Assembly: GCA_051047955.1 (NCBI GenBank)
Contig: JBPGPT010000002.1
Coordinates: 434,001 to 498,000 of the forward strand
Length of the DNA stretch: 64,000 nucleotides
Source of the DNA: Cystobasidiomycetes sp. EMM_F5
Taxonomy: Eukaryota
Reading direction: 5' to 3'
Shown: positions 1,499 through 39,801 of the stretch, in pieces
Layout: every line of letters starts with the position of its first letter
Position numbering within the stretch: the first letter of the stretch is position 1
Translations under genes and position numbers: made by a program
The notes under the pieces: model-generated
Seen by the model: the letters and a program-made list of their open reading frames with translations, nothing else
Database searches by the model: none
What the model was told of the DNA's origin: nothing

Positions 1499-3612
1499 CT
1501 AATGCCCGTTAGAGAAGCCATTTGTCCAGGGCTTGGACTGATTGGGCTTCCTTAGGAAAGGCTTGAAGATTGCATGAGGATCGGGGTGTCGGAAATCATT
1601 GTGGACAATGTTGATGAGGTAGTAGGAATCGAAAAGCTCGGTTAGGATTTTGTTGGATGGACTGTCGGTAGGGTACAGGTTTGCCCACTGCTGGCCCAAC
1701 TCGAAGGCTTCGTCCTTCCACGCTTCAAAGCTTGCCTGTTCAACAATCGTCGGCTGCAAGACTTCTTTGGCCGGGAAGATGCCCCATGTGACCGCATTGA
1801 TGGCGTCTTCGGTGCAGTTAGTGCGAAGTTGGCCAGCCTTCGTGACTGCATAGTAAGTAATGTCGGGATCTTCATCAAAAGCGGCCAGAAGCTTGTCGGC
1901 TCGCTCCGCCGAGCAGAAGAACTCGAGGTACGCCTGATACCAGATTCGTTAGATAGCATTCACCCCTGACTTTGCAATGAACATACCTTCTGATAAATAT
2001 AACCATTCCGCGGTCCCCAACCGTGGACTGGGTGACTGCTCTTGACGCCGTCCACAGCAGGTTGAGAATTGATAGTAAGGTAGCCGTTCTCGTTGATTTC
2101 GGCGAGTTGAGTAGAAATGAAGCTGGTCTCCTTTGCTGCTGGGCCTTCCGACCACGGCAGCATGGCAACTTTGCCTCTACAGAAGTCTGCAAAGATGGCT
2201 CCGACTTCTTCCAGGGTGGTCGGACTGCCCAACATCTGCTTGACCTCTTCGGGCTTCTGCTTTGTACCGAGACCAATACCAGGCCGCATCTCGCCATAAG
2301 CTGGTGAGCGAGAATCGCCCCACCGTCCATTTGGAAACTCGTCCCAAGCTTCCGTTCTAGCCAAGTACGACTTGGCACGGTTCGCCCAAAATATTGGCCT
2401 GATGGTTTCGCCACGTCGCTTATTGGTCAACGACTGTTCAAGATGGGGTAAGCTAAGTATTTCGACGCATTCCACGAATGGCTCGACTGACTGGTCTCCA
2501 TGGTAAAGGGCTGACAATATCACGGTCTGCAACAAAGCCGAGCTCGCTTAGAATGAGCTTGGTGCCCTTCTCCAGATTCATGGTGTAGAAGTGTAGACCA
2601 TGTATGCCCAGATTTCCGCCGAGAATCTGCCTACACAGCTGTGCAACGAGCTGAGTTCCAATCTGGCGAACCTTGTCGTCGTCGTCCTGTACGCTAGCCA
2701 GAGCTTCCTCCCAGGAATCCGGAACGATGGTTCCAAACCATTTTGTAGTCTTTTTAAATCCAGCATAGTTCTGTATCGGCATGATGCCCGGTATGATCGG
2801 AATATCAATTCCCGCAGCGCGTACATCGCGAACCCACTCTGCAAAAATGTCGAAATCGTAAAACATTTGTGTAAAGATGAAGGTTGCCCCGGCATCCACT
2901 TTGGCCTTCAGGTGGCGCAATTCAATCTCCTTCGTCTCGCGATCAGGGTGTCCTTCTGGGAAGCCAGCAATCGCAATATCGAAATGCCCTCCATACTTTT
3001 CGCGAATAAACTTGACGAGATCGATAGCGTGCCTAAAGCCGTTTTCTGGCGCTACCCACTGCGTCTGGCCTTTTGGTGGATCCCCTCTCAGAGCCAAGAT
3101 GTTGTGACAGCCAGACTCGTACGCATCCTACAGATCGTTGCATCATACTTAGTGTGAGCCTGTAATACCAACCGCCTGGCACAAACCTCTAAAGCCTTCT
3201 CAATCTTGTCTCTAGCCATATCGGTGCACGTCAAATGCATGCATGTTTCAAGACCAAACTCCTCGTGGGCTGCCTTTACGAATTGAGCTGTAGTATCGGC
3301 TCTCGTGCCACCTGCTCCCCAGGTGATGTCGATGAAGGTAGGGCCTAGCTCGCGCATTCGCTCAATTCGAGCATATAAATTTTGCACGCCCTCATGAGCT
3401 GTCGAAAAGGGGGAGGTATGCTTCAGTCTGTGCATCCTGAAGTCCCTCTGAAGTCGTTCTCGTTCAACGCACTTTTTGGTGGAAAATATTCAAAAGACCA
3501 CCTAAAGTACATTGTCAGTCTTGAGGCATTGCTGTCAGATACTCTCAGATGTGCTCATTCACCATGGACGCCCTTTGGTCTCGGCCGCAGCGAGCCTCTC
3601 TGATATCCGCAT
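1499..3612 (-). CDS. MET13: Methylenetetrahydrofolate reductase (catalytic + SAM-regulatory domain), spliced
   Basis: Spliced product contains MRISERL...WSFEYFPPK, FIDITWGAGG, CMHLTCT, ALRGDPP, GFPEGHP, IFTQMFYD, LHFYTMN, RPIFWANR, WDEFPNGRWGDSRSPAYG, TINSQP and NAVTWGIFP; 5 GT-AG introns. Confidence 0.95.
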
Positions 3613-6554: not shown

Positions 6555-9228
6555 CTAATAGTCTGTCACCGCAATCTTTGTGCCAACTATCGCAGCCCGC
6601 CTGCGCGCTGCTTCTTGCCTGAGGCGGTCGAGAGCATCTACAGTGGTGTCGTAGAAGTCGTACCCTCCAAACATCTGGTACCCATCATCTTGCTCCTCGG
6701 GCATGTCAATTGCATTTGCAGGTTTTGCATTCGCCTCACGATACAGCTGCGTTAGCATGCGCTGGACTTCTAAGAGGTACGATCTGAGAGTGTCCAGGTA
6801 ACGTTGTGTTTGTAAATGCTTGCTCGAGGCGCAGATAGACAGGCCGTCGTCCTTGATGATGTAGCCTATGCCAAACCCGTCTGGTACCACCGAGCCGAAG
6901 CCGAACAAACGGAGACACGGATTGCCGCAGTTACTGGTGGATAATGTGGAATGCCCTAAGGTGCTGTAGCCACCGTCGCGGAAGATTGCGGGCATGATAA
7001 TGTCTGTCGAGCTCGATGAGGCGGGAGAGGATCGACCACTTCCCTTTGGACTGGGCGGAACACCTTCCGCACCTAAAGACGGATTGCGAGCGAGGATAGC
7101 CATGGCGTAAAGTAGTCTGTCCTGACCAAGCCCTTTACTGCATTCTCGCGTGAGGTCGACATGTCGTTTGCATGCCGAACGGAGAGCATCAATCTTTTCG
7201 CGAACCGATGCATCCCCCGAGCAGAAAGTCTGCACAAACTTGACTGACTCCCTTTGAACACTCCTAATCGCTTCTGTTCGCCCGTGTAGGAACCCTTTCG
7301 TCATTGCAGGCTCGTACACGCATTCAGTCCGTCCATACAAGCTAAAGTATGCAGCTTGGAAAGCCATTTGAACGACTGAGCATGGAACACATGTCAGTGC
7401 CGGATCACTCCATGCTGTTTTAGATGACCTACATGCATCGGGAGAAAAGCCATGCCGCGTGATGAATGACTTCCCGTATGTTTGGAATTCCAATGCAACG
7501 ATATCATTCTGGCATATAAGGTCGGAAAGTCTCGTCTCTGCGAAGCGAATACCCGTACGCAGTTCGGGCGTCAAGTGCCAAGATAGACGTTTTGGGTCCG
7601 TTTCCAACTCCTCTGGACGTTCTTTATTGTCACTATCCGCTTTCTTGCCGCCGCCGATAGCCCAAGGTGATATCTTGGCTTTAAAAAGAGTTGTTGCATT
7701 CGAGTTGATGCTCTTGGCAAATCGGAGAATGAGCTCGGTGTAGACGTCGCCGGCATAGCGAAGTACTCTGCATGGCAAATAAGTCAGTCATATCCACGCA
7801 GTCCTGTGTATTCTACGCACGTATGACCATCAACGCCAGAATGCTCGAAATTGATACCAGCTGTACCGTTCTCAGTGATGATTATCTGTAGCTTCTCATA
7901 CCACCGGTTTGTGCAGGTTCCCACTTGAACGCCTCGATCCAGCTTGTACGTGCCGGACAGCATGTTTGCGCAGGTCTCGTTGATGTGCTCAGGCGTCGAA
8001 TCATCCAAGCAGACAACAAACAGAGCGCTGTCGACGACGTCCACTGCCACAGCGCTTTAGCTCAGAGTTGGAAAGATCGCGTAGCTTACTCACGGCAATT
8101 GCGATTGTCAGGATCTTCGCGCAGTCTATTGCGCAAATTGGCCCAGAGCTTCCGATTTTCTGTCGACAAGACACCGACGGCTCCTTGAGCCACTTGCGAC
8201 GGAGGTGTCTTGTCCGCATCAGCGACGATGGCTTCCAAATTTTTGAGGAGAGCCCGTTCGGTTAACGCTGGCCGATGTTTTGAATCCAAGACGTCAAACC
8301 AGTAAAATTGCCCGCGGCGAATGACGATGATGTGCTTTGAATGCGGATCAGACTGCATTTTGCAGCCGGTTCTGGAGCGAGGCTTGGTTAGGGTGATCAC
8401 ATATGCACATCCGTATCAATACTTACGAGGTCGGTATCCGAGCAGTGCCAAACAGTCTTGCGTATTGGTACATGTCTAGAGGATTTCCGCGTACACTATC
8501 TGGTTCGAGCTGACCTGTCCGAAGATCATGCACGAAGCCAAGCGATGCCATGATAAGGCCTACGGCTCGGCCCATCTGGGATCCACGAGACGGCGTAGGA
8601 TCGTCTTCGAGGATAAAGAATGGGTTAAGATTGAGCACGACTGACTCTGTAGTGTCAAGATATGCGGCATCCCAGAACTCTTCTATGTACGAATCGCGGG
8701 TGGAAGCGTAGCGGCGTAGTCGTGTGTCTAACTCTGGACCATCTTTCTTGAGAAACTCGGCAACCACTCGCTTGGTATGTTCGTGGTCATCCGGAGCCTG
8801 TCGAACCGATGTTGAGTATAGCGCACACAAATGGCTGTGAGGACTGGCCAACATGCACTCACCTGGAGACCTTCTAAAGCCCGTAAGTAGCGCTGGCATG
8901 TATCTTGCAGAGGTGGTATCGGAAGTTTGGGCAGCTTGTTCTGGTAGCGGAGAGCTTCAATCAGAAGCAGTGCTCCGACGTCAGTGAGCGCCACAAAACG
9001 CGAAGAAGCAACATACTCAGACCGCCGTCTGTTATGGAAACACGATAAGCTGGCTGTTCTCGACTTCCACACCATTTCCGATTACTTACCGCTTCCATTG
9101 GCTGCTACGGCACCGCCCTTGTCGTCGTTTACGACCCGTTGCTTGTCGTCCTTTGGCGCATTCTGGTCGAGCTTTCCGTCAGCCGGCTGCGACTGAGTCC
9201 CTTCGGAGTCCTTGAGAGCTGCCGGCAT
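6555..9228 (-). CDS. YAT1: Carnitine O-acetyltransferase (Yat1/FacC type), spliced
   Basis: LPKLPIPPLQDTCQRYL, SVVLNLNPFFILEDDPTP, NRWYEKLQIII, GINFEHSGVDGHT (catalytic His), YEPAMTKGFLHGRTEAIR, LSTSNCGNP, GFGIGYII. Confidence 0.92.
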
Positions 9229-9566: not shown

Positions 9567-10775
9567 TCAATCTCGATGCTCAAGGATGGCAATCCAGCTC
9601 GTTCCATTCCCAGCGTGCACGCTGTTAACGCTTCCAGTAAAGTCGCCAGCCGTCCACAGCTTGATTGGTCGAAGCTGGTTGAGCAGGTTTGCATCTCCCA
9701 ACCCCAAATTGCCATGCTCATTCCAGCCCCAACCCCAAACTTGACTTTCTTCGTTTCCGTCAATAAGCGCAAGCACATGTTCGGATCCGGCAGCGACACC
9801 TCGTATATTCTTGTGCAGGTCAAGGCCGATCTCGACTTGCCCTGCATCTCCGATGACTTTGCTGTCTCGACCTAGTTGACCAAAGGCATTGTCGCCGAAG
9901 CTGAAGAGACAGGTACCTTCGTCGTCGTCGCCGAGCACAAACGTGGATTTCCAAGTGGCATAAACACTTTTGAGCGCTACGGTTCCGGACTCGGCTGATA
10001 CTAAACCGCTCAACGTATTGTAGGATACGGCCGTATCCAGATGCCCTAGCTGGCCCTTCTTGTTACTTCCGTAAAGCATGCATGTCGCATCGTCGGTGAG
10101 GACCACACTGTGCAGACTGCCGACAGCTACCTGCTGCACTTGCCCGCTTGAGACTCGGGCGGGATGAGAGCAGCTGACTTGACCAGCCGCCGAGCCGAGT
10201 TGACCATACTTTGCTGCTCCGATGCCGTATGTGTGAGATTCGATGTCGACGAACAGACAATGCCTTGGTCCAGCGTACACGCTTTTGAGCACTATGTTGT
10301 TAGGAGAAGTAATCAACTCTGCAGACACACTGCTTTCTTGTGTAGAAGCGCCAGTGACTACTTGCGTGCGCCCCGCAATGCAGATAAGAATGCTTTCCTT
10401 AGGCTTGTCGCGCGGAGCCACGATGATGTACGTTGATTCCCATCCGGCAGCGACGTCAACGATGACCGGGTTCTCTTGCTCAAACGGCAATTCAAGCTGC
10501 CCGACCAGGTCCCGAATCGATAGTGGTCTGAATGCTAGGCTGGAACGGTGATTAGGCTGAAGACCAGCGCCTAGCAGGGTACATCTGGGTCCATCACGTA
10601 TGAGCAGCAGTGTATGGTGTGCTCCAGCCGCTATCTTGATGCGGCAATCTTGGTCATTTTCGACGACATGGTCTATCGGGCACCGCGTAAACGAGTGCGC
10701 ATCGTCAGTCGAGCCAATGCCTAGCTGTCCGTGCGAGTTTGATCCGGCAGCATAGAGTACGAGGCTGGATGGCAT
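9567..10775 (-). CDS. ATS1: RCC1-repeat protein, Ats1/Kti13-like, intronless
   Basis: LYAAGSNSHGQLGIG, AAGWEST, FGDNAFGQLG, AAGSEHVLAL, GWGWNEHGNLGLG, AGNGTSWI. Start placed at MPSSL because the longer ORF runs into the start of MRF1. Confidence 0.75.
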   Translation of the reverse strand: MPSSLVLYAAGSNSHGQLGIGSTDDAHSFTRCPIDHVVENDQDCRIKIAAGAHHTLLLIRDGPRCTLLGAGLQPNHRSSLAFRPLSIRDLVGQLELPFEQENPVIVDVAAGWESTYIIVAPRDKPKESILICIAGRTQVVTGASTQESSVSAELITSPNNIVLKSVYAGPRHCLFVDIESHTYGIGAAKYGQLGSAAGQVSCSHPARVSSGQVQQVAVGSLHSVVLTDDATCMLYGSNKKGQLGHLDTAVSYNTLSGLVSAESGTVALKSVYATWKSTFVLGDDDEGTCLFSFGDNAFGQLGRDSKVIGDAGQVEIGLDLHKNIRGVAAGSEHVLALIDGNEESQVWGWGWNEHGNLGLGDANLLNQLRPIKLWTAGDFTGSVNSVHAGNGTSWIAILEHRD

Positions 10776-10878
10776 ATGATGGGGATACACATGGTCAAAA
10801 GCCAAGTTGCGGCAATGGACTGCAACAACGTCGAAGTTGTTCACCTGCAGCATTATCGTCCCGCCCAACTGCAACTGC

Positions 10879-12261
10879 ATGGTCTGTGTTCAAAGATGTT
10901 TCTGCCAAATCACCAGGCGGGCTGCTAGCCGACTATGTCCTGCTCCCGCTTACGCTAGAAGGGCTTCCACTGCTTCAGCTGAAGTCACTATCGAAGAAAA
11001 GCTCGTCCGGCTCGCAAGGCAAACGCTGTCACAGGCTGCGGCGGACGCTGGAAGCAGCACAAGCTATGCCAGTGATGTCGAAGTAGCAAAGAGGACAAAA
11101 CAGCTCGAAAGCTTGAGAGACGCGCTGCGACAATGGCAGCAGAGTTCGGATGTGCGGCTTGTTTGACGAAATGGACAGTATCCAACAGCTAATGCATCCT
11201 TGCAGGTGTGCAAAAGTCTACAAGACATGATTGACCAGGATCCAGACGAGGAAATGCGAGAAATGGCAAATTTGGACCTCGCAGATGCAAAGGAGGCGTT
11301 GACGTCTGCAAATAACCGCTTACAATCGGCACTACTGCCCGCAGACCCGACCTCTGCGTTAGGATGTCTGATGGAAATCAAAGCGGGCGTCGGCGGATCA
11401 GAGGCCAGTATCTTTGCAGGCGATCTGATGCGGATGTACACACGTCTAGCAGCGGGTAAGCGGTGGAAGATGGACATTGTAAACACCTCGGCAATCTCTG
11501 CAGGTTCGGGAGGAAGCACCGATGCGTATCGAGAAGTCATACTCGAGATTGATGCAAGCGGCGCCTATCAGCTGCTCAAACATGAAGCCGGTGTACATCG
11601 AGTGCAGCGCGTTCCTCAGACGGAATCTTCGGGCAGAGTGCACACAAGTACAGCGTCGGTTATTGTGCGTTACCCCCTCTGCGACGAAGTTGCGGAAGAT
11701 TGAAAAAGGTATCTACAGGTCTTGCCTTCCGCACCAGAAAATCAGGCATCCGACGACGTGCTGGACGAGAAGGACGTCAAAGTGGAGGTGATGAGATCAG
11801 GTGGCGCTGGAGGACAGGTGCGATCATGGCGAGCCATGTGTCTCAAGCATACTGAAACCTTCGATTGATAGCACGTCAATCGGACAGAGTCGGCCGTCCG
11901 GTTGACGCACCTTCCCACTGGCATTACAGTATCGATGCAAGATACGCGCTCTCAGCACAAGAATCGCGTCAAGGCTTTTCAGATCTTGAGATCCCGCCTG
12001 CTGGCGGTGCAAGTGGCAGAACGACAAGCAGCAGGCCGCGCGGAGCGTCGTGCTCAAGTACGGGGGACTGACAGGAGCGAGAAGATTCGAACGTACAACT
12101 ATGCTCAGGACAGAGTCACAGACCACCGACTTCCTATCACTCTCAATGGTGTGCTTGGGTTTCTCGATGGGGACGATGGTAAATTGGAAATGATGGCGGA
12201 CGAGATAGATCGATGGGCGATCAAGCAGCAGGTGAACGATCTGCTCGACGCGGCGACCTGA
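10879..12261 (+). CDS. MRF1: Mitochondrial peptide chain release factor 1, spliced
   Basis: [25 protein letters not shown] (PxT motif), [19 protein letters not shown] (GGQ), [16 protein letters not shown]; Arg/Ser-rich presequence. Confidence 0.93.
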
Positions 12262-12539: not shown

Positions 12540-14687
12540 TTACATCAAGATACACTTCGAATTGAGATTCATATCCTCGGCATATTCGCTTTCGATTTCC
12601 TTCAGATTTGCCTTCTCCCTCATTTTGACTTCCCGCGGGAACCATCGTTTCTCGAATGCCACTAGTGCTGCATTTAAATTATCTGATGGAACGAAGTCAG
12701 TAGATGTGCTTCGGAGGCCGGCTGAATATTAGCGCACCCTTATTTGCTTTCATTACTACGGGTGCACGACATGAGGGGCAAGCATCTTGACCGCGCCTCT
12801 GCATCTTGACCAAGCAGCGAATACAAAACATATGCTTGCAATCAAGAGTGATAGGTCGCCAGGCAATCTCGCCGCATATAAGACAGCTATAATCGTCAAT
12901 TGACGGAATGACTGGCAGTAATATTTCGGTGATCGTTGACAGAAGGACGTGGGGCAGTGTTGTGATACCCGCAAAGACGAGCGATGTCATCTCCTCCGAT
13001 GAAATTCTGCTTGCAATAGCAGTACGGCTTGCAGTCATGGCACCAGTGCTTCCCTGAGCTTCTTGCTGAATACGTTGCTTTTGCACGAAATCAGGAAAGT
13101 CAGATGAGGCAGACAGGCCTAACCTCTTGTCGTGCTTCTTCAGGATCTTCCGAGCTGCCTCACGATTGGCGTATCCGATCCTGCGGGTATCAGGCCAGTA
13201 AGTCATTGTAAGCTTTATCAGTTGATGTCTTAAACACACCGCTTGAGCTGCAAAAGCTGTTGATTCAAGTGTACGAATTGCTCGAGTGCAGCTCGGCTTT
13301 CCTTGCTCTTCATTTGTTTGGCCAACTTACGTCGGCCCACTTGATCGACAAACCAGTCGAGGCGCTTCTCCACCTCCTCGATAGACCGTTCCCCTCGTGT
13401 GCGCTCGGTTGCGCCCTCAAAAATTTGTGCTTCTACCCATAGAGAGAAGACCTCTCTCCATGCGTATAGATTGTCCTTGCTCTTGCTGGAGGAGGAAGCG
13501 GCCGAAACCATTCTGGCGAGTTCGCGCACTGCAAGGGTGAACGCCCGCTTCTCGCTCGTCATGAGCGACGACAACGATTGCAGGGCTTGATTTAGGAGGA
13601 TGAAGAATTCGGAATCATACTCTAGATTGATGATGACTTCCTTCCGTCGCCTCTTCTGCCTGTGCTTAGTCGTCCTACATTTAGCATTTCGTTCACTCTC
13701 GCGAAAGTCGTTGTCCCTGATGTCGATGTCTGCTTCGTCACCGGTATCTGTCGAGCTCTCGCCCTTCTCTTTATCCATAATGTATGCAGGTCCAAGCAAT
13801 GCTAGCCCGTCTTCAGCTTTCCGTGCAATCTCGGCATGAGAGCCATTTATTGGTGCTGTATTATCTGCTGGCAGCACAGGGCTACCGGGAGGAGTCACCT
13901 TCGATGCTGGAGAGATATTGAGGCCGTATAGCTTGTCGAGGAGAGCCTTTCTTTCCAACTGGTCGGGACTAGGCGGAGTTGTACCGTATCCTCTCAAGCT
14001 CCCAGGCCTAGATAGTGCTCTCAAAGTTGCACGATCCTCCTCCTCGTCATCTTCGTCTGATACTTCGTCCAACTTCACAATCTGTGCGGAGTCGGCGAGT
14101 GCTATGCGGTTGTACAAATCTCGATGCTTCTCGTCGTCAGCAGTAGAAGTCTCGGTTTCTGAACTGTCTGATAGGAACACCAGCTTGATGCGGGGAATGG
14201 GGTTATCCACCGTTCCTACGATGAACATCAAACGTCAATTACTTCAGAAGTGAGGATAGGCCAATAATAGCAATATTCACCTGCGAGTTCGTACTCCGCA
14301 TGAGCGCGCTGTTGACGAGGCTTCCGTCTTCTTGGGCTTGTTTTCGCCTGAGAATAGACAGACTTGCGCAAAGAAGCCGGCCTACTGCTCGAAGGTGATA
14401 TCAGGGCACCATCCGCTGTGACATCTGCCGTTTCTGCAGTATTGCCATTGGTCGATCCAGCTTCAAGCAGCTCCTTCAGGACCTCCGCGTCCAGACCAAG
14501 ACTGTTGAGCTCATTCTGTACACGTTTGATGCTCTTCTTCAATTCGCGGTCTATCGTTTCGATGCAATTTGGATTTGTTATTGCAGCCGAAAATAGAAGC
14601 CTTGCAGCACTCACAATTTATGCTGGCTTTCTGGACTTCATCGCTCGTCCCGCTGAGCGTGCTCGCAAACTGCTGACCATACTTCAT
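12540..14687 (-). CDS. SPX-RING E3 ubiquitin ligase (Pqr1/NLA-like), spliced
   Basis: MKYGQQF...INYRELKKSIKR and ANREAARKILKKHDKR (split SPX); C3HC4 RING CLIC...CKHMFCIRC...CPSCR; ends NSKCILM*. Confidence 0.88.
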
Positions 14688-27260: not shown

Positions 27261-30099
27261 ATGTCGAGTGCTGCAGACCTGCCGCCAGTGGTGCTGGGCG
27301 ACAGTCACGGCCACAACGTGCCAGCAGCTGGAGGCGTCCATACAGCGACACCGCCAGAGCCAGCTACGACTCTTCACGCAGCAGTGGTAGCAACGACATC
27401 AGCTGGAGTCAGTGAAAACAATGGCCTGCTGCCGTCAGTCCAGGCAGCCAAAGAGCAAGCTGCGAATCCAAATGTTGAGGGCGTTGGAGACGTGTCGCAC
27501 GTTGACGTCGCAAACGAGCTGGGCCTGCAGACAGTGACACGAGAGCAGCTGGACGCGCACCACGAGCTCCAGCAACGGTCACTGCCTGCAAAACCTCAGG
27601 ATCACTCGACGGGTGGACTGGTCAAGCAGCACGATACGGCTGACAGCGAGGCACTCGATAAAGACACCTTCAATGTCTGGAGCAATCCAGATGAAGTGCC
27701 AAAAGAAGTCGGTGCGTGTATTTCAATCGAGGAGGCCATTATCACTGCCTAACATCGTTCCTGTCCACAGTCGAGGGCCTCGACAATGAGGAGCTATGGA
27801 AGCTGGTGCGCCGATTCGACAAACAAATGTACCATGTCAAGGCGACAAAGGACGGAAGACTGCGGGGGATGTACCCTGAGGAAGAGCTGGACCTTCTCAA
27901 CGCCGCAGACGAGGAATTCAGCCCAGACAGGCTACGTTCAAACATTGAAAGATTGTACATCACGTTTGTGAGTGTGTATGAGGAACGATGTGCTCGGATA
28001 TTCTCATCTAAACACCTCGTAATGTCTGTCTTTCAGATCATTGGCTCAGCTGGCTTCTTCAAACATATTGCTAGACTGCGATCGTGGAACGAGTACAATC
28101 GTACCGCGACGTGGTGTGCTGTAGGCTGAACAATGAGGCTTGGACTCGCTCAATGACTCACTTCTGCGCCCATGCAGACATACTTTACATTCTGGCTGTT
28201 TGGACAATCTGGATCGCTCATCATTTGCCTGATCATCACACTCATGGTCTATCCCCCTTCAAGACACTATCTCTTCCCACCTGCACCCCTGTCAATGGTT
28301 TCGGCATTTTCAGGTGGCCTCCAGAAACCGAAAGCTGGAAACAAGCTTGGATCGCATGACAGGTTAGCCAAAGCCACCCCACTTAACCGAGCTGTGTTTC
28401 TTCTAAGTTGAGCTCTTGGTTCTCTCTTACACGTATACTCTGTATGCACTTCACACTGGATTTGATTCTACACCAATCTGCGGAGATAGCTTGACTGGAG
28501 CTGCAGAAGCGCACAAGGGAGAAGCGGTAGAGAACGAAGCATCAAACTTTGTGAATGGTCTAGCTGGCGCAGTCATGGCAACAAGTATTGGTAAAGTCAA
28601 CGAGTCGACCGAGGAGGAGACTGGGAAAAAGACAAAGCTCGATTCGGCTTTACCTGATCCCACAGCCATTGCCATGTCCGGCGGAGAGGCTCTCAAGAGG
28701 ACTGCAGGTAAATTGCCTTCAGAAGATCACAACAAGGCCAAAGACCCGGTAGTGGATGCCATCTGGAAGGGGATGAGACCACTTATGCATGGCCTCGAGG
28801 ATTTCTGCGATAATTATGAAAGAGTCGCAAAGTAAGTAACTCGTGCAAATTCGGCATTATCAGTTCTCTAACCTGCATGCGTCGACTACAGCGCATTATC
28901 GCCCACGCATCCGTATCCACAACATCTCCCGCGGATACGTCTAGCAGCTTTGCTTCTACCGGTACTACTCATTGCAGCAGTCGTTCCGGTTGCATGGCTT
29001 TCACGTGGCGCGTCTTTTGGTGCTGGCGCAGCTTTTTTCAGTCAGCCGTACATGACGCGGGGTCTCAACTGGTTCCTTACGAAGTACCCCGATTGGCAAG
29101 ACTATCTCAAAGTCGAGGAGTACGTTTTCCGAGCTGGCATTACATGCAGTATCGACGCTGACGTATTGTTTGCGTGCAGGACGATTCTGAAAGGTGTCCC
29201 ATCCAACAATCAGCTCACCTTGACTCTGCTTCGTATTGGTGAAGACCACAATGTTCCGCTACCACCGCCACCTAAATACACTGGTGCCCCACCAGAACGT
29301 TCGCCGTCACCAATTGCCGAAGAGGATCTGCCTTCCATCAATCCAGATACTGCTGACCGAGACTTGTCGCATGATGATGAGTACCACTATGCCGGCATCG
29401 ATTTGAACGATGATGGAGATACCGCCGTCGAAGATGATTCGAGTCACGACGCATTGGGCGTCAAGAAAACCAAGAAGCGTCGACTCGTCAATTTCGTCAA
29501 GGGTTCGGCCAAGACTGCAGTCACGGCCATCATGGGCGCAGACCGTGTCAAGGCTACCGTTGGGAGCGAGAAGAGCAAAGAACGTCAAGGCGTGCTCAGG
29601 AGTAGAAAATATGTCGATGGTCCGTCCATGTTTCGATGTCGACATTCCGGCAAGAAGGGTTGGGCTATCATTGTGAGCGGCGTGAGCTGAAGAGCAGCAT
29701 GTCGTGTATTTGGTCGATTAGCTAACATGTGTACCGTTCCCAGTCGACATCTGCAACTACGCCATGCATAGCCTGGGTTCCCGACAAAAAGCTTCCTGGC
29801 AGTGTAGAGTTTGCCCCGAAGTTCTCTGTTCAATTACAGGATATCACCCAACTGCAGAAGCTCGGGGGTCTGGGTTGGAAGACCAAGTTGGTCGTCGGAG
29901 GAATGCTCGGAATGGAAGTCATCGACGCACTCAAGATTGTCACTGGTACAGACGAAACAATTGTTCTGACTGCTTTGCCGCGCCGTGATGAGCTGTTCAA
30001 CCGGCTGATAGCTTTGAGTAACAATGTGAGTGATCCTCAAAAGACCGCGCTAGCTGTCATGGCTGACTAGTCTGTGCGCAGAGATGGGATTCGTATTAG
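27261..30099 (+). CDS. DUF3292-family fungal membrane protein, spliced
   Basis: GLDNEELWKLVRRFDKQMYHVK, DEEFSPDRLRSNIERLY, KHIARLRSWNE, LFPPAP, ILKGVPSNNQLTLTLLRIGE, KLGGLGWKTKLVVG, RRDELFNRLIA; ends RWDSY*. Confidence 0.8.
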
Positions 30100-31299: not shown

Positions 31300-34200
31300 T
31301 CAAAATGCATTGCGATCCCGCTCAACATTCTCCTTCCACGCTTGCATCAGCTCTTGCACAATCTGCGTAATCTCGGTTGACGTCCTGACGTTCGCAGCTT
31401 CGAAATCATACCGTTTCACGTCCCTATCCTTGTCGCGCCAGACAATCAACTTGAAATTACTTGGGATTCTCTTGGTGATCTTGCACATGGCGATTTGCGA
31501 GATGTGGTATGACGCCGTCCTGACTGCATTGCTCGTAAGTTTCGTGTCTGAAGGCATAATGTGGATGTAGTCGTTGTCGATCGAGAAGATGCGCTCGTGT
31601 CTGCCCAAAGGCATTGGCATCTTGCGCTGAACTATGTATGTCTGTATGCCAATACAGTCAGCAGTCTTTGATGCAGTACTCCGACCGGTCTAACGTACCC
31701 TGTAATTGGAGTCTAGATCTGCTGCAGATACGTACCGGGGTTGTGGTACTTCAGATAGGCGCTTGAAAATGGAGGCTATACCGGGGATGACAAAATTAGC
31801 CCAAACTCCAAGACACATGGAGGCATCAGCTAAACACACCATTCGGATTCGTATTCTGTAGACCGTTAGTTCTTGCTGCAGAAGCCGAAGCTGTCGCCGC
31901 GCTTGTCGAGGTCCCTCGCTTGGCCAAGGCCAAGTGGTGTACTCCTTGCAGACTTTCGACTGTTCTATCCAAGGGCACAACTAGGCCTCGATCGGGGACC
32001 ATCAATATCCACTCTTTCGAGCTTTCAAGGTTCTTCTTCCTGCAGATGAGGTCCAGTACATCGGCGAGATACATGTCGCGAGGCACCTGCACAGTCGTCG
32101 TGATAGCCTCAACGCCTTTGAGCGGAATGCGCACTCTCAGGTAAACAAGTGGCACATTTGTCCCTGCAGCGGTGGCAAACGACGCTTTCGACGGTGTTGT
32201 CGCGTTGTACGATGCAGCTATGGTATTTGCTGCCCCATTGATGCTGTTTGGTGGGATCGCAAGGCTGGGCAGCGCAAGGGTACTCTGGTTGTCAATAAGC
32301 GGTGCCATTCGTTTGATACGCTTAATGACTCGTGATGGGCGACGCTCAATTTGGCCATCGCTAGCCTGATTAGCGCGAGCTGTGTAAAGCCGTCAGTGTA
32401 TGTCATATAGCGACTGGAAAAAGATAGGCTTCATTACCTTGAGAATCAGTAGCTTTGACCAAGGCAAAACAGGTACCGAAGCCTTTCGCAGTCCGTGAGC
32501 GATCCGGCGCTGTCGTGAAGAAATATGAGTATAAAGTGCTTGTGAAGCAGGTCAGTACACCACCTACCGGGGAAGTCATCATCTACTGCACCATCCTCCT
32601 CCTCTTCGGCGATACGGAGGACCCAGTTAGTTACTTTCAACAACTTGCAGTCATCATCGGATCTCTCGTCCCACTTCGCATCGTTTGCACCTTCTGTATC
32701 GGGACATATACTGGGCTGGCGTCGTTCCTCCCAATACTTCCATAGAGCGCAACCTATGATCTCTTCGACGATCAGGTCCGGCTTGACGTGCATCTTGACA
32801 GGCTTCGCAGGATCGCGACTGAAAGGATAGTATACGGATAACGACAAGCTGGAGTTGCTGGCAGGAGCGGCAGCCCCTCTTCTAGCATAGCGACCAGTTG
32901 CTACGGCGACAGGAGCTGCGGTGAACAGTGCACCATAAAACTCATTGAATGGATTGTCGACCTTCGTGTCGCTTCCCGCGTCAGCGCTCTTGAGCATGGC
33001 ACTCAATGCAGAAGTCTTTGGCGGTATGAATGGAACTACTTCTTGCCGAGTGATTGGAAAGGCAATGTACGGATCGTACTCTTTCTTGTGGGAATGCTTG
33101 GTAGACGACTTTGGTCTAGACAGTTCCGGACTTGGCGCGATGTAAGAGGAAGCCACAGTCGTTTGTCTAGCCTGACGAGGATCAGCGCTTGTATTTATTG
33201 TGAGGCTATCCACAGCCTCTGGCGCTGAGACCGTCCGCAACGCCGTTAAGGATCCTGCATTGGGACCAGTAGACTGCGAGCGGACTAGGTGACGCTTGAC
33301 TGGCTCAGTCAGGTAGCCATCCTCCTCTTCGGCGGGGATAATTGCCGTATCTATCTCACTGGCAGGCGATGCCATTTCCGGACTACCTACAATCGAAGTA
33401 GCGCTGTGTACAGGATTGCGCAAAGCAGATTTTGGCCCTCGTACCGGAAAGCCCGTACTCGTCGGCGTGGTAGGCTGAGATAGAGCATGAATGGATAGCG
33501 GAGCGGGATCCGTTTTGCTACGTTGTCGAGTACGAACTCCGGTGCTCGGGCGGGATCGTAAGAGCTGATTGTGCAAGTTGGAAGCGGGAGATAGTGGTCG
33601 TGGTCCAGTAGCATTGGAAAGGGATGCGGTCGGTGAGACGGGCTTTATGTTCTGCAGTGGCGACAGGGGTGGACGGACAGGGAAAATGTTTCCAGGTGAA
33701 GGAGGAGCACTTCTATGTACAAGACTTGGGCTAGACGATCCGTTTCGCATTACCGATCTAGCTGACACTGGCGTACCGGGAGTTTGTGGACCGTTTGGTA
33801 GCGAACCCTCAGGCGGAGACGCAGGAAGAGATAGCGGTAAGGCGACCCTGCCTGATATATTGACTCGTCGTCTAGCTCGTCTTCTAGCCATTTGTGCTGC
33901 CCTCAGGGCTGCGTCTTCAGCATCGACAGGTGGTCCAGGGTGTCCAGATGTATCGTCTCGTTGTTCATCTGTGCTCAAGACTTGTCCGGCTTCGTGGATC
34001 TCGCTGGCTTCTGCGATAGCCGGAAGTTTAGCGTGATTGGGCGGAGAAACCAAAGTCGACTGCCCGTATAGATCGCTGACCGCGTCTTGCAATGCATCGG
34101 CACGTGTAGCAGAGGGGGCAAAAGATGTAGCTTCGAGTGAAGAACTCGATCCACCATGTCTACCGTGAAGAGAAAATTGGAAGAGATCGTCATCCTGCGG

Positions 34201-35618
34201 CGTCTCTTCGCCTTCACTCAGTGACTCAAGCAGGCTACCCGACCTCAAGCGAGCTCCCTGTTTTGCTCCATTTTGTACTTGTTGATGTTGTTGGGATTGC
34301 CTCCGCTCGTGCCACCGTTGACGAATCTCCTCTTCGTCTGAATCAATATCGCCGAGCGCAGCATCACTAGATGCTCCGGTATCCTTGCGAGATCGAGGTC
34401 GTACCAGTACGTCACTCGGCGAAGGATGCAGAGACAAGTCGGGTATTCCTACTGCTGTATCCGGTCTGCTAGCAGTAGCTCTCGCATCTTGCAGATAGCT
34501 GCGCGACGGATGCTCATCATCCCGGATAGGTTCAGCGGCTTGTGTAAGCGAGGTGTCCTGATCTGCAGCATCGGCGCCGTGTAAATCCGGGGAAGAGGCG
34601 GGATACGCTGATACCGTGGGTGAGTAAGGCTGTGGCGAAAGCTGATTCGCTAGAGCTCTATCTAGTGGAGCCATGAGCCCGCTGGCGGAGCTAGCCTCGC
34701 TATCGCCTCTGGGACGAGATTGATTTCGATAAGACGGCCGTGATTGCAAGGGGCTGCTGGCAAAGTTATCAAACGTTCGCTCCGGATTGTACGCCTCCTC
34801 CTCCTCGGAGTTGTCGTACTCGGAATCAGAATCTTCTTGCATGCTCTGACGCGAGTCACTACGAGGCACAGGCTGCCATTGTTGTTGCCCAGGTTGAGGT
34901 GTTCCGTCCGGAGAATCGATTGTGAGATGCGGGGTAGTGATGCCGTTGGCCGAGGCGGGTTGTCTCGTAGAGTAGTCTCCTGCTTCATCATTAAGTTCTC
35001 CACTAGCATACGGGGAACCTGCTGCTTTAGCAAGCTGATGCGGTTTTGGCTTCCAGCTTGATCGCTTGCCCTTGGGCTTTGGATGAGCCGGCCCGTCTAC
35101 TGCACCAAGGGAATTGTCATGGCGCCCCACAATAGTTTGAGAGTAGTTTAATCCAGCTACTCGCCTGTCGGCGTCTCCCCGACCATCTGACTGACGTCGG
35201 CGCAACCTGTTGGGTCGGCCAGGGGCACCTGATCCGCCATTGCTGGGTGTATTGTAACCGGTCGAGCGACCGAGCGGAGTAGCAGACGACGTGAGGGGAA
35301 TAGGACCTGGCGACCTCGCGAGTCCAAAGTCGGCCACGCCTGTTCCCTGACGATGTGGGCCGGCATGATGCGATTGACCAATGTTGCCGCTGTGGGGATG
35401 CAACCCTGCAGTTATGGCATGCTGGGACAGAGCGTGGAAGGGGGCAGACTGGATCAGCGATGTAGGCTGACTCCCGTAAGCTCCTAGAGGTGCTTCGACT
35501 CGGAGGAAAGCGAGCCGGAGAGCCTGGAGAAAGTAGCTGCGGCGTATCGAGGATTCAGCATTTGGAGCTCAAGTTGAAAGTCAGCTCCTGCTCACTCTTG
35601 GTCAGTAATCAGCGACAT
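31300..35618 (-). CDS. SIN1: TORC2 subunit Sin1/Avo1, spliced
   Basis: MSLITD..YFLQALRLAFL; SALSAML..NPF; CRIM (IVEEIIGCALWKY, WVLRIAEE..VDDDFP); RBD-like (YLADVLDLICRK, VPLDRTVESL); PH (HERIFSIDNDYIHIMP, KRYDFEA). Confidence 0.9.
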
Positions 35619-35941
35619 GTTAGTATTAGAACCATTGCAGCTTTACGACATGTTGGTCATTTCCAAATCGACGCGGCTCCCGGGGCTTGGTGCAACTCCA
35701 ACACCTGCAAGTCGGGCAGTTCTGGGCTAGACTGCGAGTAATGTGCTAGTCACATCGACAGCCCGTACAAGTGAACGCTGCGCTGGTCAGCTCAGTATCG
35801 ATATCGTTTCCACGCTCATTTTCCTGGTCGAATAGTCAGCCTAGTCTGGGCGTTCCCAGCACATCTCCCGGTCAAGCGATTAAGAGATACACCATCCAAG
35901 CTGTGAATCTAGGCCACACGCCACACACACCCTGTGCAATA

Positions 35942-37318
35942 ATGGCCATGTTTGCCAGCGCAGCCGACCGTCGCGCTCTGCACGTTCCAAACGGCAAGGG
36001 AGGTGCAACCCGCCCACCGATAAAGAGGACAGCCAGTACAGCCGACATCAGTGCGGATGATGACCTGAATACTGTGGCCTTCATCGACCAGCATCGGGTC
36101 ATCAACGCCGGCGACATCTCCTCCGACGACGAGGGGCACTTTGGGGTCGGGAAACTCGGTGTTCGTGAAGACTGGGAGAGCGATTCAGAAGACGACAGCA
36201 GCGAGGTAGAGATGGACGTGTCTGGAAGACCGCAACGTACGGCGCGCAGGCGCGTCGGCAAACAAGACGATGACCCATTCATGCTCACAAACTCAGCTGC
36301 CACTACGACCCCAACTACATCCTCGCCCACCGAACCTGCTAGCAGGATGCTCGTTGATGGCTCTCCGCCTTCTTCACCTACCTACGCAGCTGCTGGACGG
36401 CAGCAGGCACAACAACGCGGTGTGAAGCGCAAGCTGCCCGCTTCGACGGAAGGATCAGCTGATACCGGATATAAAATGAGCGAGAAAGCGCGAAAACAAT
36501 TCGATGACGAAGAAAGCAATCCATTTCTAGTCCGACCGCAGACTTCCGCAGCCGGTTCTGCAAAGTCTGACGGCCCGCGCAAGACGCAGGACGGAAATCA
36601 CAAGATGTCATACGTATTGTACGTGCAATGTAGTATGTCTCTAACGGAATACAGTTCTGATCTTTGTCCTACACTGTGCAGCCGTGGAAAGCGTATCACG
36701 TATGAAGCGGACATATCCTCGCTCCACCCTGATCTAGATAGCGACGAAGAGGAACTGAATCGCAAACTTGGTGTCAAGTCTGGTCCACGCGTCTTGTTTC
36801 CTGCACCGCCAACTCCTGTTGCGTCCACTTCCAAACGGACTACAGCAAATGTTTCTCCACCTTGCGCAACGTCTGCTGCCGCCAATGCACACCTCATGCA
36901 GACACCCCGCAGGCCGGGCAAGAAAGGGGTAGTCTCTTTCGTCGAGAGCTCGCCTGTTGATACGAGATTTCCTGCTGCAACTCCTGCTACCACATCTCGA
37001 GCGCGGTCTTCTGCCGTTGAGCTAGACGTGAGCAGGGCCGGAAGTCAGAAGAGAAAAGTGGAGCAAGATGACGGCCTTTCAAGGGGTATCCCACCCACTC
37101 CAGCTTCACTTCCCCAGCCAAGACTGTCGGAAATGGACAAGCACGTCATCAACCCCGAGCAAGCGCAGTCTATGCGGGAGAGCTTCATCAACACTATGAA
37201 TGCTATGCATCAATCTTCTGTCAACCAGCACCGGAGGCGAATGAGTGGCATGATGAGCAATCCCGCCTCGGATGCTGCTCGTCTCGCCCGAAGACACGCT
37301 CCCTACCATCCGCGGTGA
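35942..37318 (+). CDS. Disordered protein with a Rum1/Sic1-type CDK-inhibitor core; intron 36619-36681
   Basis: After splicing: ESNPFL...SYVFRGKRITY...GPRVLFP; many S/T-P sites; C-terminal RHAPY (PY-NLS-like). Confidence 0.65.
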   Translation: MAMFASAADRRALHVPNGKGGATRPPIKRTASTADISADDDLNTVAFIDQHRVINAGDISSDDEGHFGVGKLGVREDWESDSEDDSSEVEMDVSGRPQRTARRRVGKQDDDPFMLTNSAATTTPTTSSPTEPASRMLVDGSPPSSPTYAAAGRQQAQQRGVKRKLPASTEGSADTGYKMSEKARKQFDDEESNPFLVRPQTSAAGSAKSDGPRKTQDGNHKMSYVLYVQCSMSLTEYSSDLCPTLCSRGKRITYEADISSLHPDLDSDEEELNRKLGVKSGPRVLFPAPPTPVASTSKRTTANVSPPCATSAAANAHLMQTPRRPGKKGVVSFVESSPVDTRFPAATPATTSRARSSAVELDVSRAGSQKRKVEQDDGLSRGIPPTPASLPQPRLSEMDKHVINPEQAQSMRESFINTMNAMHQSSVNQHRRRMSGMMSNPASDAARLARRHAPYHPR

Positions 37319-37737: not shown

Positions 37738-39801
37738 ATGCACCTCGTCGTAGGAGGAAAGGATACCGACAGCGTGCGTGTCTTGCCAGGTCCCCGGGCA
37801 GGTTACAAGCGAAAAGTTGTAGGCTAACTTGCAGCTTACTCTGCACTGACACGACAGTCAGACTTCCATTCCACTTCCGTGTACGGCTCATCAGCAGCCA
37901 GTAAAGAGATTCCACGCTATGAACTCCAAGACGAGGAATTGGACCCTAGGATCGCCTCGAGACTTATTCAGGACGAATTGCAGCTGGATGGCATACCCGC
38001 GCTGAACCTCGCGAGTTTTGTGACGACGTACATGGAGAAGGAGTGCGAAGAGCTTATGCGAGATAGTGAGCCTTCCAGTCGTTGTCTCTGCAAAGTGACG
38101 TAGACTAATGATATACGTCCAGACTTGAACAAGAACTTCATTGACGTGTAAGCAAATACTTTAGGCACGTTTCATCAGACTGACGTGTGAATTGCATAAA
38201 TTACAGCGAAGAATATCCTTCCCTAGGCGAGATTGAAGCCCGCTGTGTCAATATTGTCGCCAAACTGTTCAATGCCCCTCTTGAAGGCGAGCACAATGCG
38301 CTCGGCGTCAGCACCGTGGGAAGTTCCGAAGCAATCATCCTCGCCGTCCTCGCTGCCAAGCGGAGATGGCAAAAGATGCGAAGAGCTCAGGGCAAGTCGA
38401 CTGAAAAGCCAAACTTAGTGATGAATGCAGCTGTGCAGGTATGTCTATGTGCTTTTGTTGATTGTTGAGCAGGCATACTCAAGGTCTGCCCGCGTCACTC
38501 TCTCGTGGTCACTATAGGTCTGCTGGGAAAAGGCAGCACGCTACATGGAGTAAGCAAAGCGATTGTAAAACAATCGCAACCCATACTGACTATATCCACG
38601 TCATCAGAGTAGAAGAACGCTACTGGAATACCAGACCCGGAACATATGCTGCTGACCCGAAAGAGCTGGTGGACCTTGTCGACGAAAACACCGTCCTCGT
38701 CTGTGCCATCCTAGGCACCACTTACACTGGAGAATACGAGGACGTAGCCGAGATCAACAAACTACTCGAGGAGAAGAACAAGGCCCAAGGTCTGGATGTG
38801 CACATCCACGTCGATGCCGCTTCGGGTGGTTTCGTAGCGCCATTCGTCAACCCTGATCTTGTCTGGGATTTCAGAAATTCCCTCGTCTGCTCCATCAACA
38901 CCTCTGGACACAAGTATGGACTGGCGTACGCTGGCGTCGGCTATCTGGTGCTACGAGACAAGTCTTTCTTGCCAGAGGTATGCATCCATCTCAAGCGAGG
39001 CGGACTTGTTCTTACTTTACAATAACGTTTATAGGAAATTGTGTTTACTGTCAATTATCTAGGAAGTCCTCAAATGTCGTTTGTAAGTCATTATTTCTGC
39101 GAGGACAGCCTTCAAGCATTGACATGTCTCGCCGCACAGACCCTCAATTTCTCCAAGAGTGCAGTCCAAGTCATCGGATCATACTACCAGCTGATCCGAC
39201 TCGGCAAGAACGGGTATCGCGCAATCATGGGTAATCTGACCGACACTGCCGACTACCTGACCAAAGTGGTAGCGGAGATTCACGACGGCAAGTACTTCAG
39301 GATCATCTCTGCTACGGGGGGAGCGGGTCTCCCGCTCGTTGCTTGGCAGCTGAAGGAGGGCGTGGTCGAATGGGACGAGTTTGCATTGGCGCGTACCCTT
39401 CGCCGCCGTGGCTGGATCGTACCTGCGTACAGTGAGTCCAACGCAAGGTTTGTGCGGAGCATTTTCGCTTACGAACGACGTTTCCAGCCATGGCACCCAG
39501 CTGCGACGGAATGAAGTTACTTCGCGTCGTTGTCCGTGAAGACTTTTCACGTTCCCGCTGCGAAAACTTTATTCGCGATCTCAAGGCTGCGATACAGGAG
39601 CTCGATGAGACGCCCAAGCACGTCCTCGAGCACGAAGATAAGAAAAGCGCAACGAGTGCAGAGGGTAATTCAGATCAGGCTGGCAAGGATGGTAAATCGT
39701 CTTCGTCGCATGCTGCACGACACCAGTCGCGCACGCACGTTCATCACCACGACAAGCACAGTCTGCAGGGTAAACACGGCAAGACGCACGCAGTGTGCTA
39801 G
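37738..39801 (+). CDS. GAD1: Glutamate decarboxylase, spliced
   Basis: LNLASFVTTYME, STVGSSEAIIL, VQVCWEKAARY, ILGTTYTG, IHVDAASGGFVAPF, SINTSGHKYGL (PLP Lys), GWIVPAY, LRVVVREDFS. Confidence 0.95.

Follow-up and report, generated by a model that had tools for sequence, protein, structure and literature searches.

The contig JBPGPT010000002.1 (GenBank assembly GCA_051047955.1) of Cystobasidiomycetes sp. EMM_F5, a member of the Pucciniomycotina, carries a gene for a protein of 437 amino acids that is deposited as 'hypothetical'. Analysis of a 64,000-nucleotide stretch of this contig (positions 434,001 to 498,000, hereafter called the window and numbered from its first nucleotide) suggests that the gene is an unannotated basidiomycete orthologue of Rum1 of Schizosaccharomyces pombe and Sic1 of Saccharomyces cerevisiae, the stoichiometric inhibitors of Cdk1-B-cyclin complexes. 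We put the probability of this reading at roughly 65%, the homology being argued from motif strings ascribed to the yeast proteins. The gene, its splicing, the family, the strict conservation and spacing of the core and the predictions of disorder and a hairpin are shown below, while cyclin docking, kinase inhibition and phosphodegradation are inferred along with this homology.

Three short motifs carry the reading. They follow one another in the spliced protein as NPFL, SYVFRGKRI and PRVLF, and match in order, and approximately in spacing, the strings HNPFL, YYVFRGKRI and KPKLLF, which we take to lie in the inhibitory region of Rum1. The inhibitory C-terminal domain of Sic1, of about 70 amino acids, presumably holds NPF, then TYV, then KPKALF. 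A triad of NPF, YV(F) and [KR]P[KR]xLF, ordered within about 70-80 residues, would mark members of this inhibitor family and can be recognised at residues 193-266; as the family definition is itself provisional, we use it as a lead and not as proof. If these strings are right, an identity of eight residues with two flanking motifs in register is very unlikely to have arisen by chance, and the family described below would be the basidiomycete branch of Rum1/Sic1. The original prediction for this stretch gave the same strings, and the two statements of them are not independent. The accessible text of a study of Rum1 gives the positions of 39-IDEIPE-44, 80-LERCMEE-86 and the main cyclin-dependent kinase (CDK) sites T58 and T62 (PMC7195536). 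These agree with the Rum1 sequence assumed here immediately ahead of the motifs and lend the strings some credence, the three core motifs themselves lying outside the part so covered.

Gene structure and removal of the intron

The gene consists of two exons separated by an intron of 63 nucleotides (Table 1). No in-frame ATG is present upstream of position 35942 as far back as the stop codon at 35747-35749. Because the intron is in frame and free of stop codons, a plain list of open reading frames (ORFs) gives a read-through of 458 amino acids. The original prediction had described a gene hidden from the ORF track in this way, and our analysis agrees. Joining of the exons by their coordinates fuses TT and C to a Phe codon, giving ...HKMSYVFRGKRITYEAD..., and the spliced product reads ...EESNPFL...MSYVFRGKRITY...GPRVLFP.... 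A word-index protein search matched it to 'hypothetical protein EMMF5_000618 [Cystobasidiomycetes sp. EMM_F5]' (437 amino acids; P0002), which is identical to our translation of the joined exons. The gaps between the motifs, earlier counted as 22 and 24 residues, had each come out three short; NPFL and MSYVF are in fact separated by 25 residues, and RITY and PRVLFP by 27.

Loss of the intron was also seen outside the deposited gene model. Four public sequencing runs were compared with the gene, their kind ('RNA?') being a guess. One contig of 241 nucleotides from run X2 (depth 2.6) spans positions 36486-36615 and 36682-36789 with GTT in between, which corresponds to an exact loss of 36619-36681 together with an A>G change at 36616 that is synonymous. 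The runs X6, X7 and X1 cover positions 35716-36343 only and stop short of the intron. Two metagenome contigs (L001 and L002) encode a full-length relative in one unbroken frame, VSYVFRGKRITY included. From RGKR on, two proteins predicted elsewhere are nearly the same as this relative (143 of 158 residues identical in P0016 and 167 of 168 in P0010), and just before RGKR their residues are unrelated to it, a pattern that is expected if an intron-bearing gene and its spliced transcript are both on record. Fragment gene models of relatives tell the same story, 19 of them being interrupted at the codon of Phe226. Eight N-terminal fragments finish in [ST]YVL and one continues past YVL into the intron, while 10 C-terminal fragments begin a few residues ahead of RGKR. 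This shared break argues that the phase-2 intron in the Phe codon is old and common to the relatives. The deposited model, the bridging contig of X2 and the intron-less contigs of the relatives thus all agree with removal of the intron.

A conserved three-motif core in unnamed fungal proteins

Three word-index protein searches returned 2, 11 and 4 matches. When 1.84 billion representative proteins were searched exhaustively with a profile, 34 matched at E ≤ 1e-3; of these, 19 passed a cut-off of 1e-10 and 10 a cut-off of 1e-30. One of the 34, P0041 (2115 amino acids), was judged spurious; it is highly repetitive, and six stretches of it aligned with the acidic part of the profile (E 7.9e-4), so low-complexity columns of the profile can attract false matches near the threshold. 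The remaining 33 are credible relatives. Ten blocks are common to the close set and the EMM_F5 protein, namely RPPIKRTASTA, SSDDE, DPF, SSPT, NPFL, SYVFRGKRITY, KSGPRVLFPxPPTP, LMQTPRR, IPPTPASLPQ and ERERL...RRYAPYPPR. Fourteen matches of 244-367 amino acids (P0026, P0027 and P0029-P0040) are more distant, and 13 of these share essentially the core only; the other, P0027, is a fragment of the group-A type that stops at the intron. Among the 13 distant proteins we distinguish subgroup B, with six members, subgroup C (P0032, P0033, P0034, P0035, P0038 and P0039) and P0040, which stands alone.

All 18 full-length members of the family hold, in this order, [ND]PF, 19-27 residues, YVFRG, 18-30 residues and P[RK]xL[FYW]. 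The first motif is NPF in 17 members and DPF in one, and YVFRGKR is likewise found in 17 of the 18, P0040 having YVFRGTKR. Subgroup C comes nearer still to the yeast strings given above, with NPFL, VYVFRGKRI and, in P0033, KPKLLF. In an alignment of 16 sequences the invariant residues are S145 and P146 (T147 nearly so), P194 and F195 (N193 nearly so), Y224, V225, F226, R227 and G228 (K229, R230 and Y233 nearly so), P261, L264 and P266, and T365 and P366; the third motif admits R or K at position 262, V or L at 263 and F, Y or W at 265. In hhalign, the close set matched subgroup C with a probability of 99.0 (E 4.1e-18), the aligned columns lying only within residues 141-278 of the EMM_F5 protein, and subgroup B with a probability of 99.15 (E 3.9e-19), the columns lying only within residues 186-269. 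The motif triad is beyond chance, since its order and spacing are kept in all 18 full-length members and no other part can be aligned between the subgroups. The conservation of the motifs in orthologues, on which the original prediction depended, is therefore borne out, the three motifs being the most conserved part of every relative found.

The flanks of the core contain further short motifs, several of which are potential phosphorylation sites. In the N-terminal RPPIKRTASTA site, K28, R29, T30, S32 and T33 are invariant across five full-length close relatives, and KRxxS is also present in subgroup B; a kinase could be assigned to this site only tentatively. Q299, T300, P301, R302 and R303 of QTPRR are invariant in the five close relatives, and QTPKR is present in subgroup C. 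The whole decapeptide IPPTPASLPQ, which may serve as a phosphodegron, is invariant in the close relatives, with its T365 and P366 kept in all 16 sequences. The C-terminal helix consensus EQRQLERERLxxAMxG is conserved in alignments of the close relatives and has no counterpart in subgroups B or C; in the tail, the five close relatives all keep R430, P433, Y434, P436 and R437. TPRR (within QTPRR, 299-303), two PPTP (268-271 and 363-366) and a terminal RHAPY (within RRHAPYHPR) had all been pointed out before and are all found. The 'many' S/T-P sites of the original prediction are a more generous description; 10 such sites are present, about 6.9 are expected from composition (the protein is of low complexity, with S 11.7%, A 11.0%, R 9.2% and P 8.5%), and a single one fits the full consensus [ST]Px[KR]. 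As for their conservation, SSPT and PTP are found in all 16 aligned sequences and two further sites within subgroups, and the proteins of subgroup C have 10-17 sites.

AlphaFold2, run with the family alignment, predicts that most of the EMM_F5 protein is disordered, the mean predicted local distance difference test (pLDDT) score being 54.1 and 245 of the 437 residues scoring below 50. Two parts are modelled with confidence. These are a hairpin with strands at residues 222-226 and 229-233 (block pLDDT 87) and the C-terminal helices (block pLDDT 84-93). For P0035 of subgroup C, modelled from its own alignment, the mean pLDDT is 50.4 and a hairpin is again predicted on VYVF-RG-KRIP, with strands at residues 189-192 and 195-198. 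The YVF-RG-KRI hairpin is the sole regular element common to both models. Intrinsic disorder with a short module that folds on binding is a trait of Rum1/Sic1-type inhibitors, and the predicted structures are consistent with such an organisation.

Two features of the distant subgroups may be mentioned here. The last two residues are M-R in all six proteins of subgroup C (as in ...AKVMR and ...SKSMR), the close subgroup ending in APYPPR. C-terminal MR, IR or LR tails are signals for binding to the anaphase-promoting complex/cyclosome in other cell-cycle proteins. The M-R ends suggest, by analogy, a possible second regulatory handle in subgroup C. In addition, a Leu/Pro-rich SP site is present in the N-terminal part of subgroup B (SLPSPP) and subgroup C (IPLPPSPP), around alignment columns 75-90, and is absent from the EMM_F5 protein. 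This site may be a CDK site or a docking site of the Leu/Pro-rich (LP) type for G1 cyclins, and can be compared with the LLPP motif of Sic1 in the accessible text of bioRxiv 10.1101/2020.03.02.973354.

Proposed mechanism and competing readings

In the mechanism that we propose, a module of about 75 residues would be the active part of an otherwise disordered protein. P-[RK]-x-L-F-P (residues 261-266) would act as an RxL/Cy motif and dock on a B-type cyclin at its hydrophobic patch, while the hairpin SYVF-RG-KRITY and the upstream NPFL would pack on the kinase subunit and block it. The outcome would be tight 1:1 inhibition in G1. As CDK activity climbs, SSPT, PPTP (268-271), QTPRR and IPPTP (362-366) would become phosphorylated, and the phosphorylated S/T-P sites would lead to ubiquitylation by a Skp1-cullin-F-box (SCF)-type ligase and removal of the inhibitor at G1/S. 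The pattern of the third motif fits RxLF and not RVxF, because L264 is invariant and position 263 is free to be V or L.

Several observations weigh against this reading. Rum1 and Sic1 were not recovered by a profile search restricted to proteins of 185-765 amino acids (E ≤ 1), by a search confined to the core region (35 candidates, E ≤ 10) or by the profile search of 1.84 billion proteins (E ≤ 1e-3). No search linked the family to Rum1/Sic1, and the likeness is argued from the motif strings given above. We estimate that three short motifs would score about 25-30 bits, which is under the thresholds in libraries of the size searched (1.8 to 5.8 billion proteins), and the failure to recover the yeast proteins is therefore weak evidence. 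Other databases were similarly silent. The CDI family of CDK inhibitors (PF02234) matched none of 16 family members at E ≤ 10, nor the unspliced ORF or the single exons; across Pfam, nothing beyond sub-threshold noise (TetR_C_14, E 0.13; DUF3391, E 3.2) came from the unspliced ORF, its two exon pieces or the 16 members. Two profiles found no match among the sequences of the PDB at E ≤ 10, and in the ESM Atlas the top scores of 0.82 ('SLD2' and hypothetical proteins) were reached by shuffled sequences one third of the time. Support for splicing in the EMM_F5 lineage comes from the one low-depth contig of X2, whose RNA label is guessed, and the enrichment of S/T-P sites over composition is not clear. 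The EMM_F5 protein has about twice the length of Rum1, and its best PPTP sites follow the core on the C-terminal side, whereas those of Rum1 are N-terminal. Moreover, the motifs have other possible partners. NPF/DPF and [RK][VL]xF also resemble ligands of EH-domain proteins, AP-2 and protein phosphatase 1 (PP1), and the LLFP of subgroups B and C holds the LxxP core of the LP docking motifs of G1 cyclins as given in the accessible text of bioRxiv 10.1101/2020.03.02.973354.

The most serious competing explanation is one that we consider unlikely. The core could be homologous to Rum1/Sic1, or dock on cyclin-CDK, in a protein that is a substrate or adaptor of the kinase rather than its stoichiometric inhibitor. 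RxLF or LLFP would then recruit cyclin-CDK, as LP motifs with an LxxP core are used by G1 cyclins of the Dikarya, and the function proper of the protein would reside in another part, such as the subgroup-specific C-terminal helix. The wholly different flanks of the subgroups are in favour of such a role, as is the confidently modelled helix with its APYPPR tail, which the close subgroup alone possesses. However, a substrate requires a docking motif and phosphosites only, while the strongest constraint in the family falls on a hairpin and a docking motif at fixed spacing, the arrangement required of an inhibitor that clamps two subunits. The identity to the hairpin string of Rum1 also falls in the presumed inhibitory domain. 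Less probable still is a family unrelated to CDK inhibitors, in which the likeness to Rum1/Sic1 is coincidental and the protein is a disordered scaffold of short linear motifs, with NPF/DPF for endocytic proteins of the EH-domain or AP-2 type and [RK][VL]xF for PP1. NPF is indeed nearly invariant, many members have an additional upstream DPF or NPF (DDDPFM in the EMM_F5 protein and three such motifs in P0040), PRVLF of the close subgroup literally fits RVxF, and no database ties the family to Rum1/Sic1. Against a scaffold stands YVFRGKR, the most conserved element, for which neither the EH/AP-2 nor the PP1 version has a role, together with the three motifs in the order and spacing given for Rum1, whose agreement by chance was considered above. 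A PP1 regulator of the RVxF type was rejected on the alignment of 16 sequences. The 'V' position varies between V and L and the would-be free 'x' position is the invariant L264, the opposite of the constraint on RVxF.

It might also be asked whether the ORF is a gene at all, since low-complexity composition and the lack of a Pfam domain would be expected of a chance open frame in GC-rich DNA. The 33 relatives with conserved blocks, the shared intron position and the spliced or intron-less contigs rule this out, and we give it a negligible probability. The near-identical contigs point the same way, as of the six differences seen in them four are synonymous and two conservative. An inhibitor of the Rum1/Sic1 type thus remains the reading that we favour.

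Table 1. Positions of the gene, its motifs and neighbouring genes in the window
Feature	Residues	Position	Strand	Remarks
Whole gene, ATG to stop	1-437	35942..37318	+	2 exons, 437 amino acids; translation of joined exons equals P0002
Exon 1		35942..36618	+	phase-2 end within Phe226 codon (TT|C)
Intron		36619..36681	+	63 nt, in frame, stop-free; 5' GTACGT, CTAAC at 36641, 3' CAG
Exon 2		36682..37318	+	includes stop codon TGA 37316-37318
RPPIKRTASTA	24-34	36011..36043	+	N-terminal; basophilic RxxS-type site, then acidic Ser clusters (ISSDDE)
SSPT	144-147	36371..36382	+	S-P site ahead of core
NPFL	193-196	36518..36529	+	first core motif
MSYVF|RGKRITY	222-233	36605..36703	+	predicted beta-hairpin; intron splits its DNA
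PRVLFP-APPTP	261-271	36785..36817	+	candidate RxLF-type cyclin-docking motif (putative role), then PPTP site
QTPRR	299-303	36899..36913	+	sole full [ST]Px[KR] CDK consensus site
IPPTPASLPQ	362-371	37088..37117	+	TP site in [IL]-P-(P)-T-P context
C-terminal helices	384-416, 420-430	37154..37294	+	AlphaFold2 prediction; close (Pucciniomycotina-type) subgroup only
RHAPYHPR	C-terminus	37292..37315	+	subgroup consensus RRYAPYPPR
MTHFR		1502..3489	-	Pfam scan of long frames; intron-split
Carnitine/choline acyltransferase		6558..8956	-	Pfam scan of long frames; intron-split
RCC1-repeat protein		9570..10889	-	Pfam scan of long frames; intron-split
SPX + RING protein		12700..14234	-	Pfam scan of long frames; intron-split
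DUF3292 protein		27695..29687	+	Pfam scan of long frames; intron-split
SIN1 neighbour		32449..35568	-	upstream, divergent; Sin1 CRIM domain, E 2e-19
Pyridoxal-dependent decarboxylase exons		38184..39025	+	downstream; PF00282, E 6e-16 and 9e-26

Surroundings of the gene and comparison with known systems

The divergent neighbour upstream of the gene can be identified as SIN1, a subunit of target of rapamycin complex 2 (TORC2), by its Sin1 CRIM domain (Table 1). The head-to-head arrangement of the two genes was described earlier with a distance of about 320 bp. The neighbour lies on the minus strand, 373 nucleotides separate the end of the SIN1 open frame from the ATG, and the earlier figure is plausible. 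One ACGCG and one ACCAGC are present in this intergenic region and no full MluI cell-cycle box, Swi4/6-dependent cell-cycle box or forkhead site, which is not informative. The conserved basophilic RxxS site (KRTAS), of a type used by AGC kinases, in a gene placed beside that of a TORC2 subunit hints, as a speculation by analogy, at nutrient control through an AGC kinase. The decarboxylase downstream is probably a glutamate-decarboxylase-like enzyme. No CDK or cyclin gene was detected in the window by a Pfam scan of long frames.

Stoichiometric inhibitors of B-cyclin-CDK complexes determine how long G1 lasts, permit arrest in response to starvation or mating signals, and prevent re-replication. 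Sic1, Rum1 and p27 have evolved so fast that they can barely be aligned, or not at all. The gene described here would be the first candidate for a Rum1/Sic1 brake in basidiomycetes, which would be useful and can be put to a direct test, though in principle it comes as no surprise. Its recognisable core would allow the gene to be located and deleted in experimentally tractable species, basidiomycete yeasts among them. The core is also a compact peptide for structural study of how this class of inhibitors blocks the kinase, and could seed a curated family model, of which Pfam has none. The EMM_F5 protein and its 33 unnamed relatives may be regarded as a sequence family outside Pfam in which the YVFRGKR hairpin, at a fixed distance from P[RK]xLF, represents the ancestral inhibitory module of Rum1/Sic1, a broader claim to which we would give even odds. 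Should the Rum1/Sic1 link prove wrong, this would still be a conserved, unannotated protein family of fungi.

The name Rum1 is also borne by PHD/JmjC-type transcription regulators of Ustilago, Aspergillus and Cryptococcus, which have the name alone in common with the S. pombe inhibitor; the Ustilago 'rum1' we take to be an unrelated regulator of the PHD type. That these proteins are unrelated, as had been stated before for Ustilago, agrees with the title of PMC6070901, 'The PHD Transcription Factor Rum1...'. No basidiomycete inhibitor of the Rum1/Sic1 type is described in the literature searched, which did not extend to subscription journals, and this accords with the earlier statement that no characterised member was known. 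A paper containing Rum1, Sic1 and basidiomycete together (PMC2895642) cites the yeast proteins only, the supplements of PMC5161751 have 'rum1' as a strain name only, and no basidiomycete member was found in the accessible parts of PMC8670703, PMC7349709 and bioRxiv 10.1101/2025.05.01.651613. The core motif strings led to no relevant paper in the same literature.

Among known systems, Rum1 of S. pombe (p25rum1, the inhibitor of Cdc2-Cdc13) can be compared with the EMM_F5 protein. The EMM_F5 protein is predicted to be disordered, as is Rum1, and both have TP sites of the CDK type including a PPTP, in addition to the agreement of the three motifs. However, Rum1 has about 230 amino acids, and the longer EMM_F5 protein adds the N-terminal KRTAS motif, the C-terminal helix and the APYxPR tail. 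Sic1, the Clb-Cdk1 inhibitor of S. cerevisiae, is likewise disordered and has NPF, TYV and KPKALF in the corresponding order. In contrast to the EMM_F5 protein, where the core is central, it has its core at the C-terminus and is not known to have an FRGKR turn. Sic1 is removed after a cascade of multisite phosphorylation by CDK, according to the accessible text of PMC8670703 and bioRxiv 10.1101/2020.03.02.973354. Its LP-docking motif VLLPP, also taken from the accessible text of the latter, is without a clear counterpart in the EMM_F5 protein.

The Cip/Kip inhibitors and the plant KRP proteins (Pfam CDI, PF02234) would resemble the EMM_F5 protein in the principle of combining an RxL motif with a hairpin. 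In the structure of p27 with cyclin A-Cdk2, the disordered inhibitor places an RxL motif on the cyclin and a beta-hairpin on the kinase. However, the order of the elements is reversed, as the hairpin precedes RxLF in the EMM_F5 protein. The accessible text of Medina 2016 (PMC4862756) describes Sic1 and p27 as being without sequence identity. If the YVFRGKR-P[RK]xLF module is indeed ancestral, basidiomycetes would share the brake of the model yeasts, built in the order opposite to that of p27.

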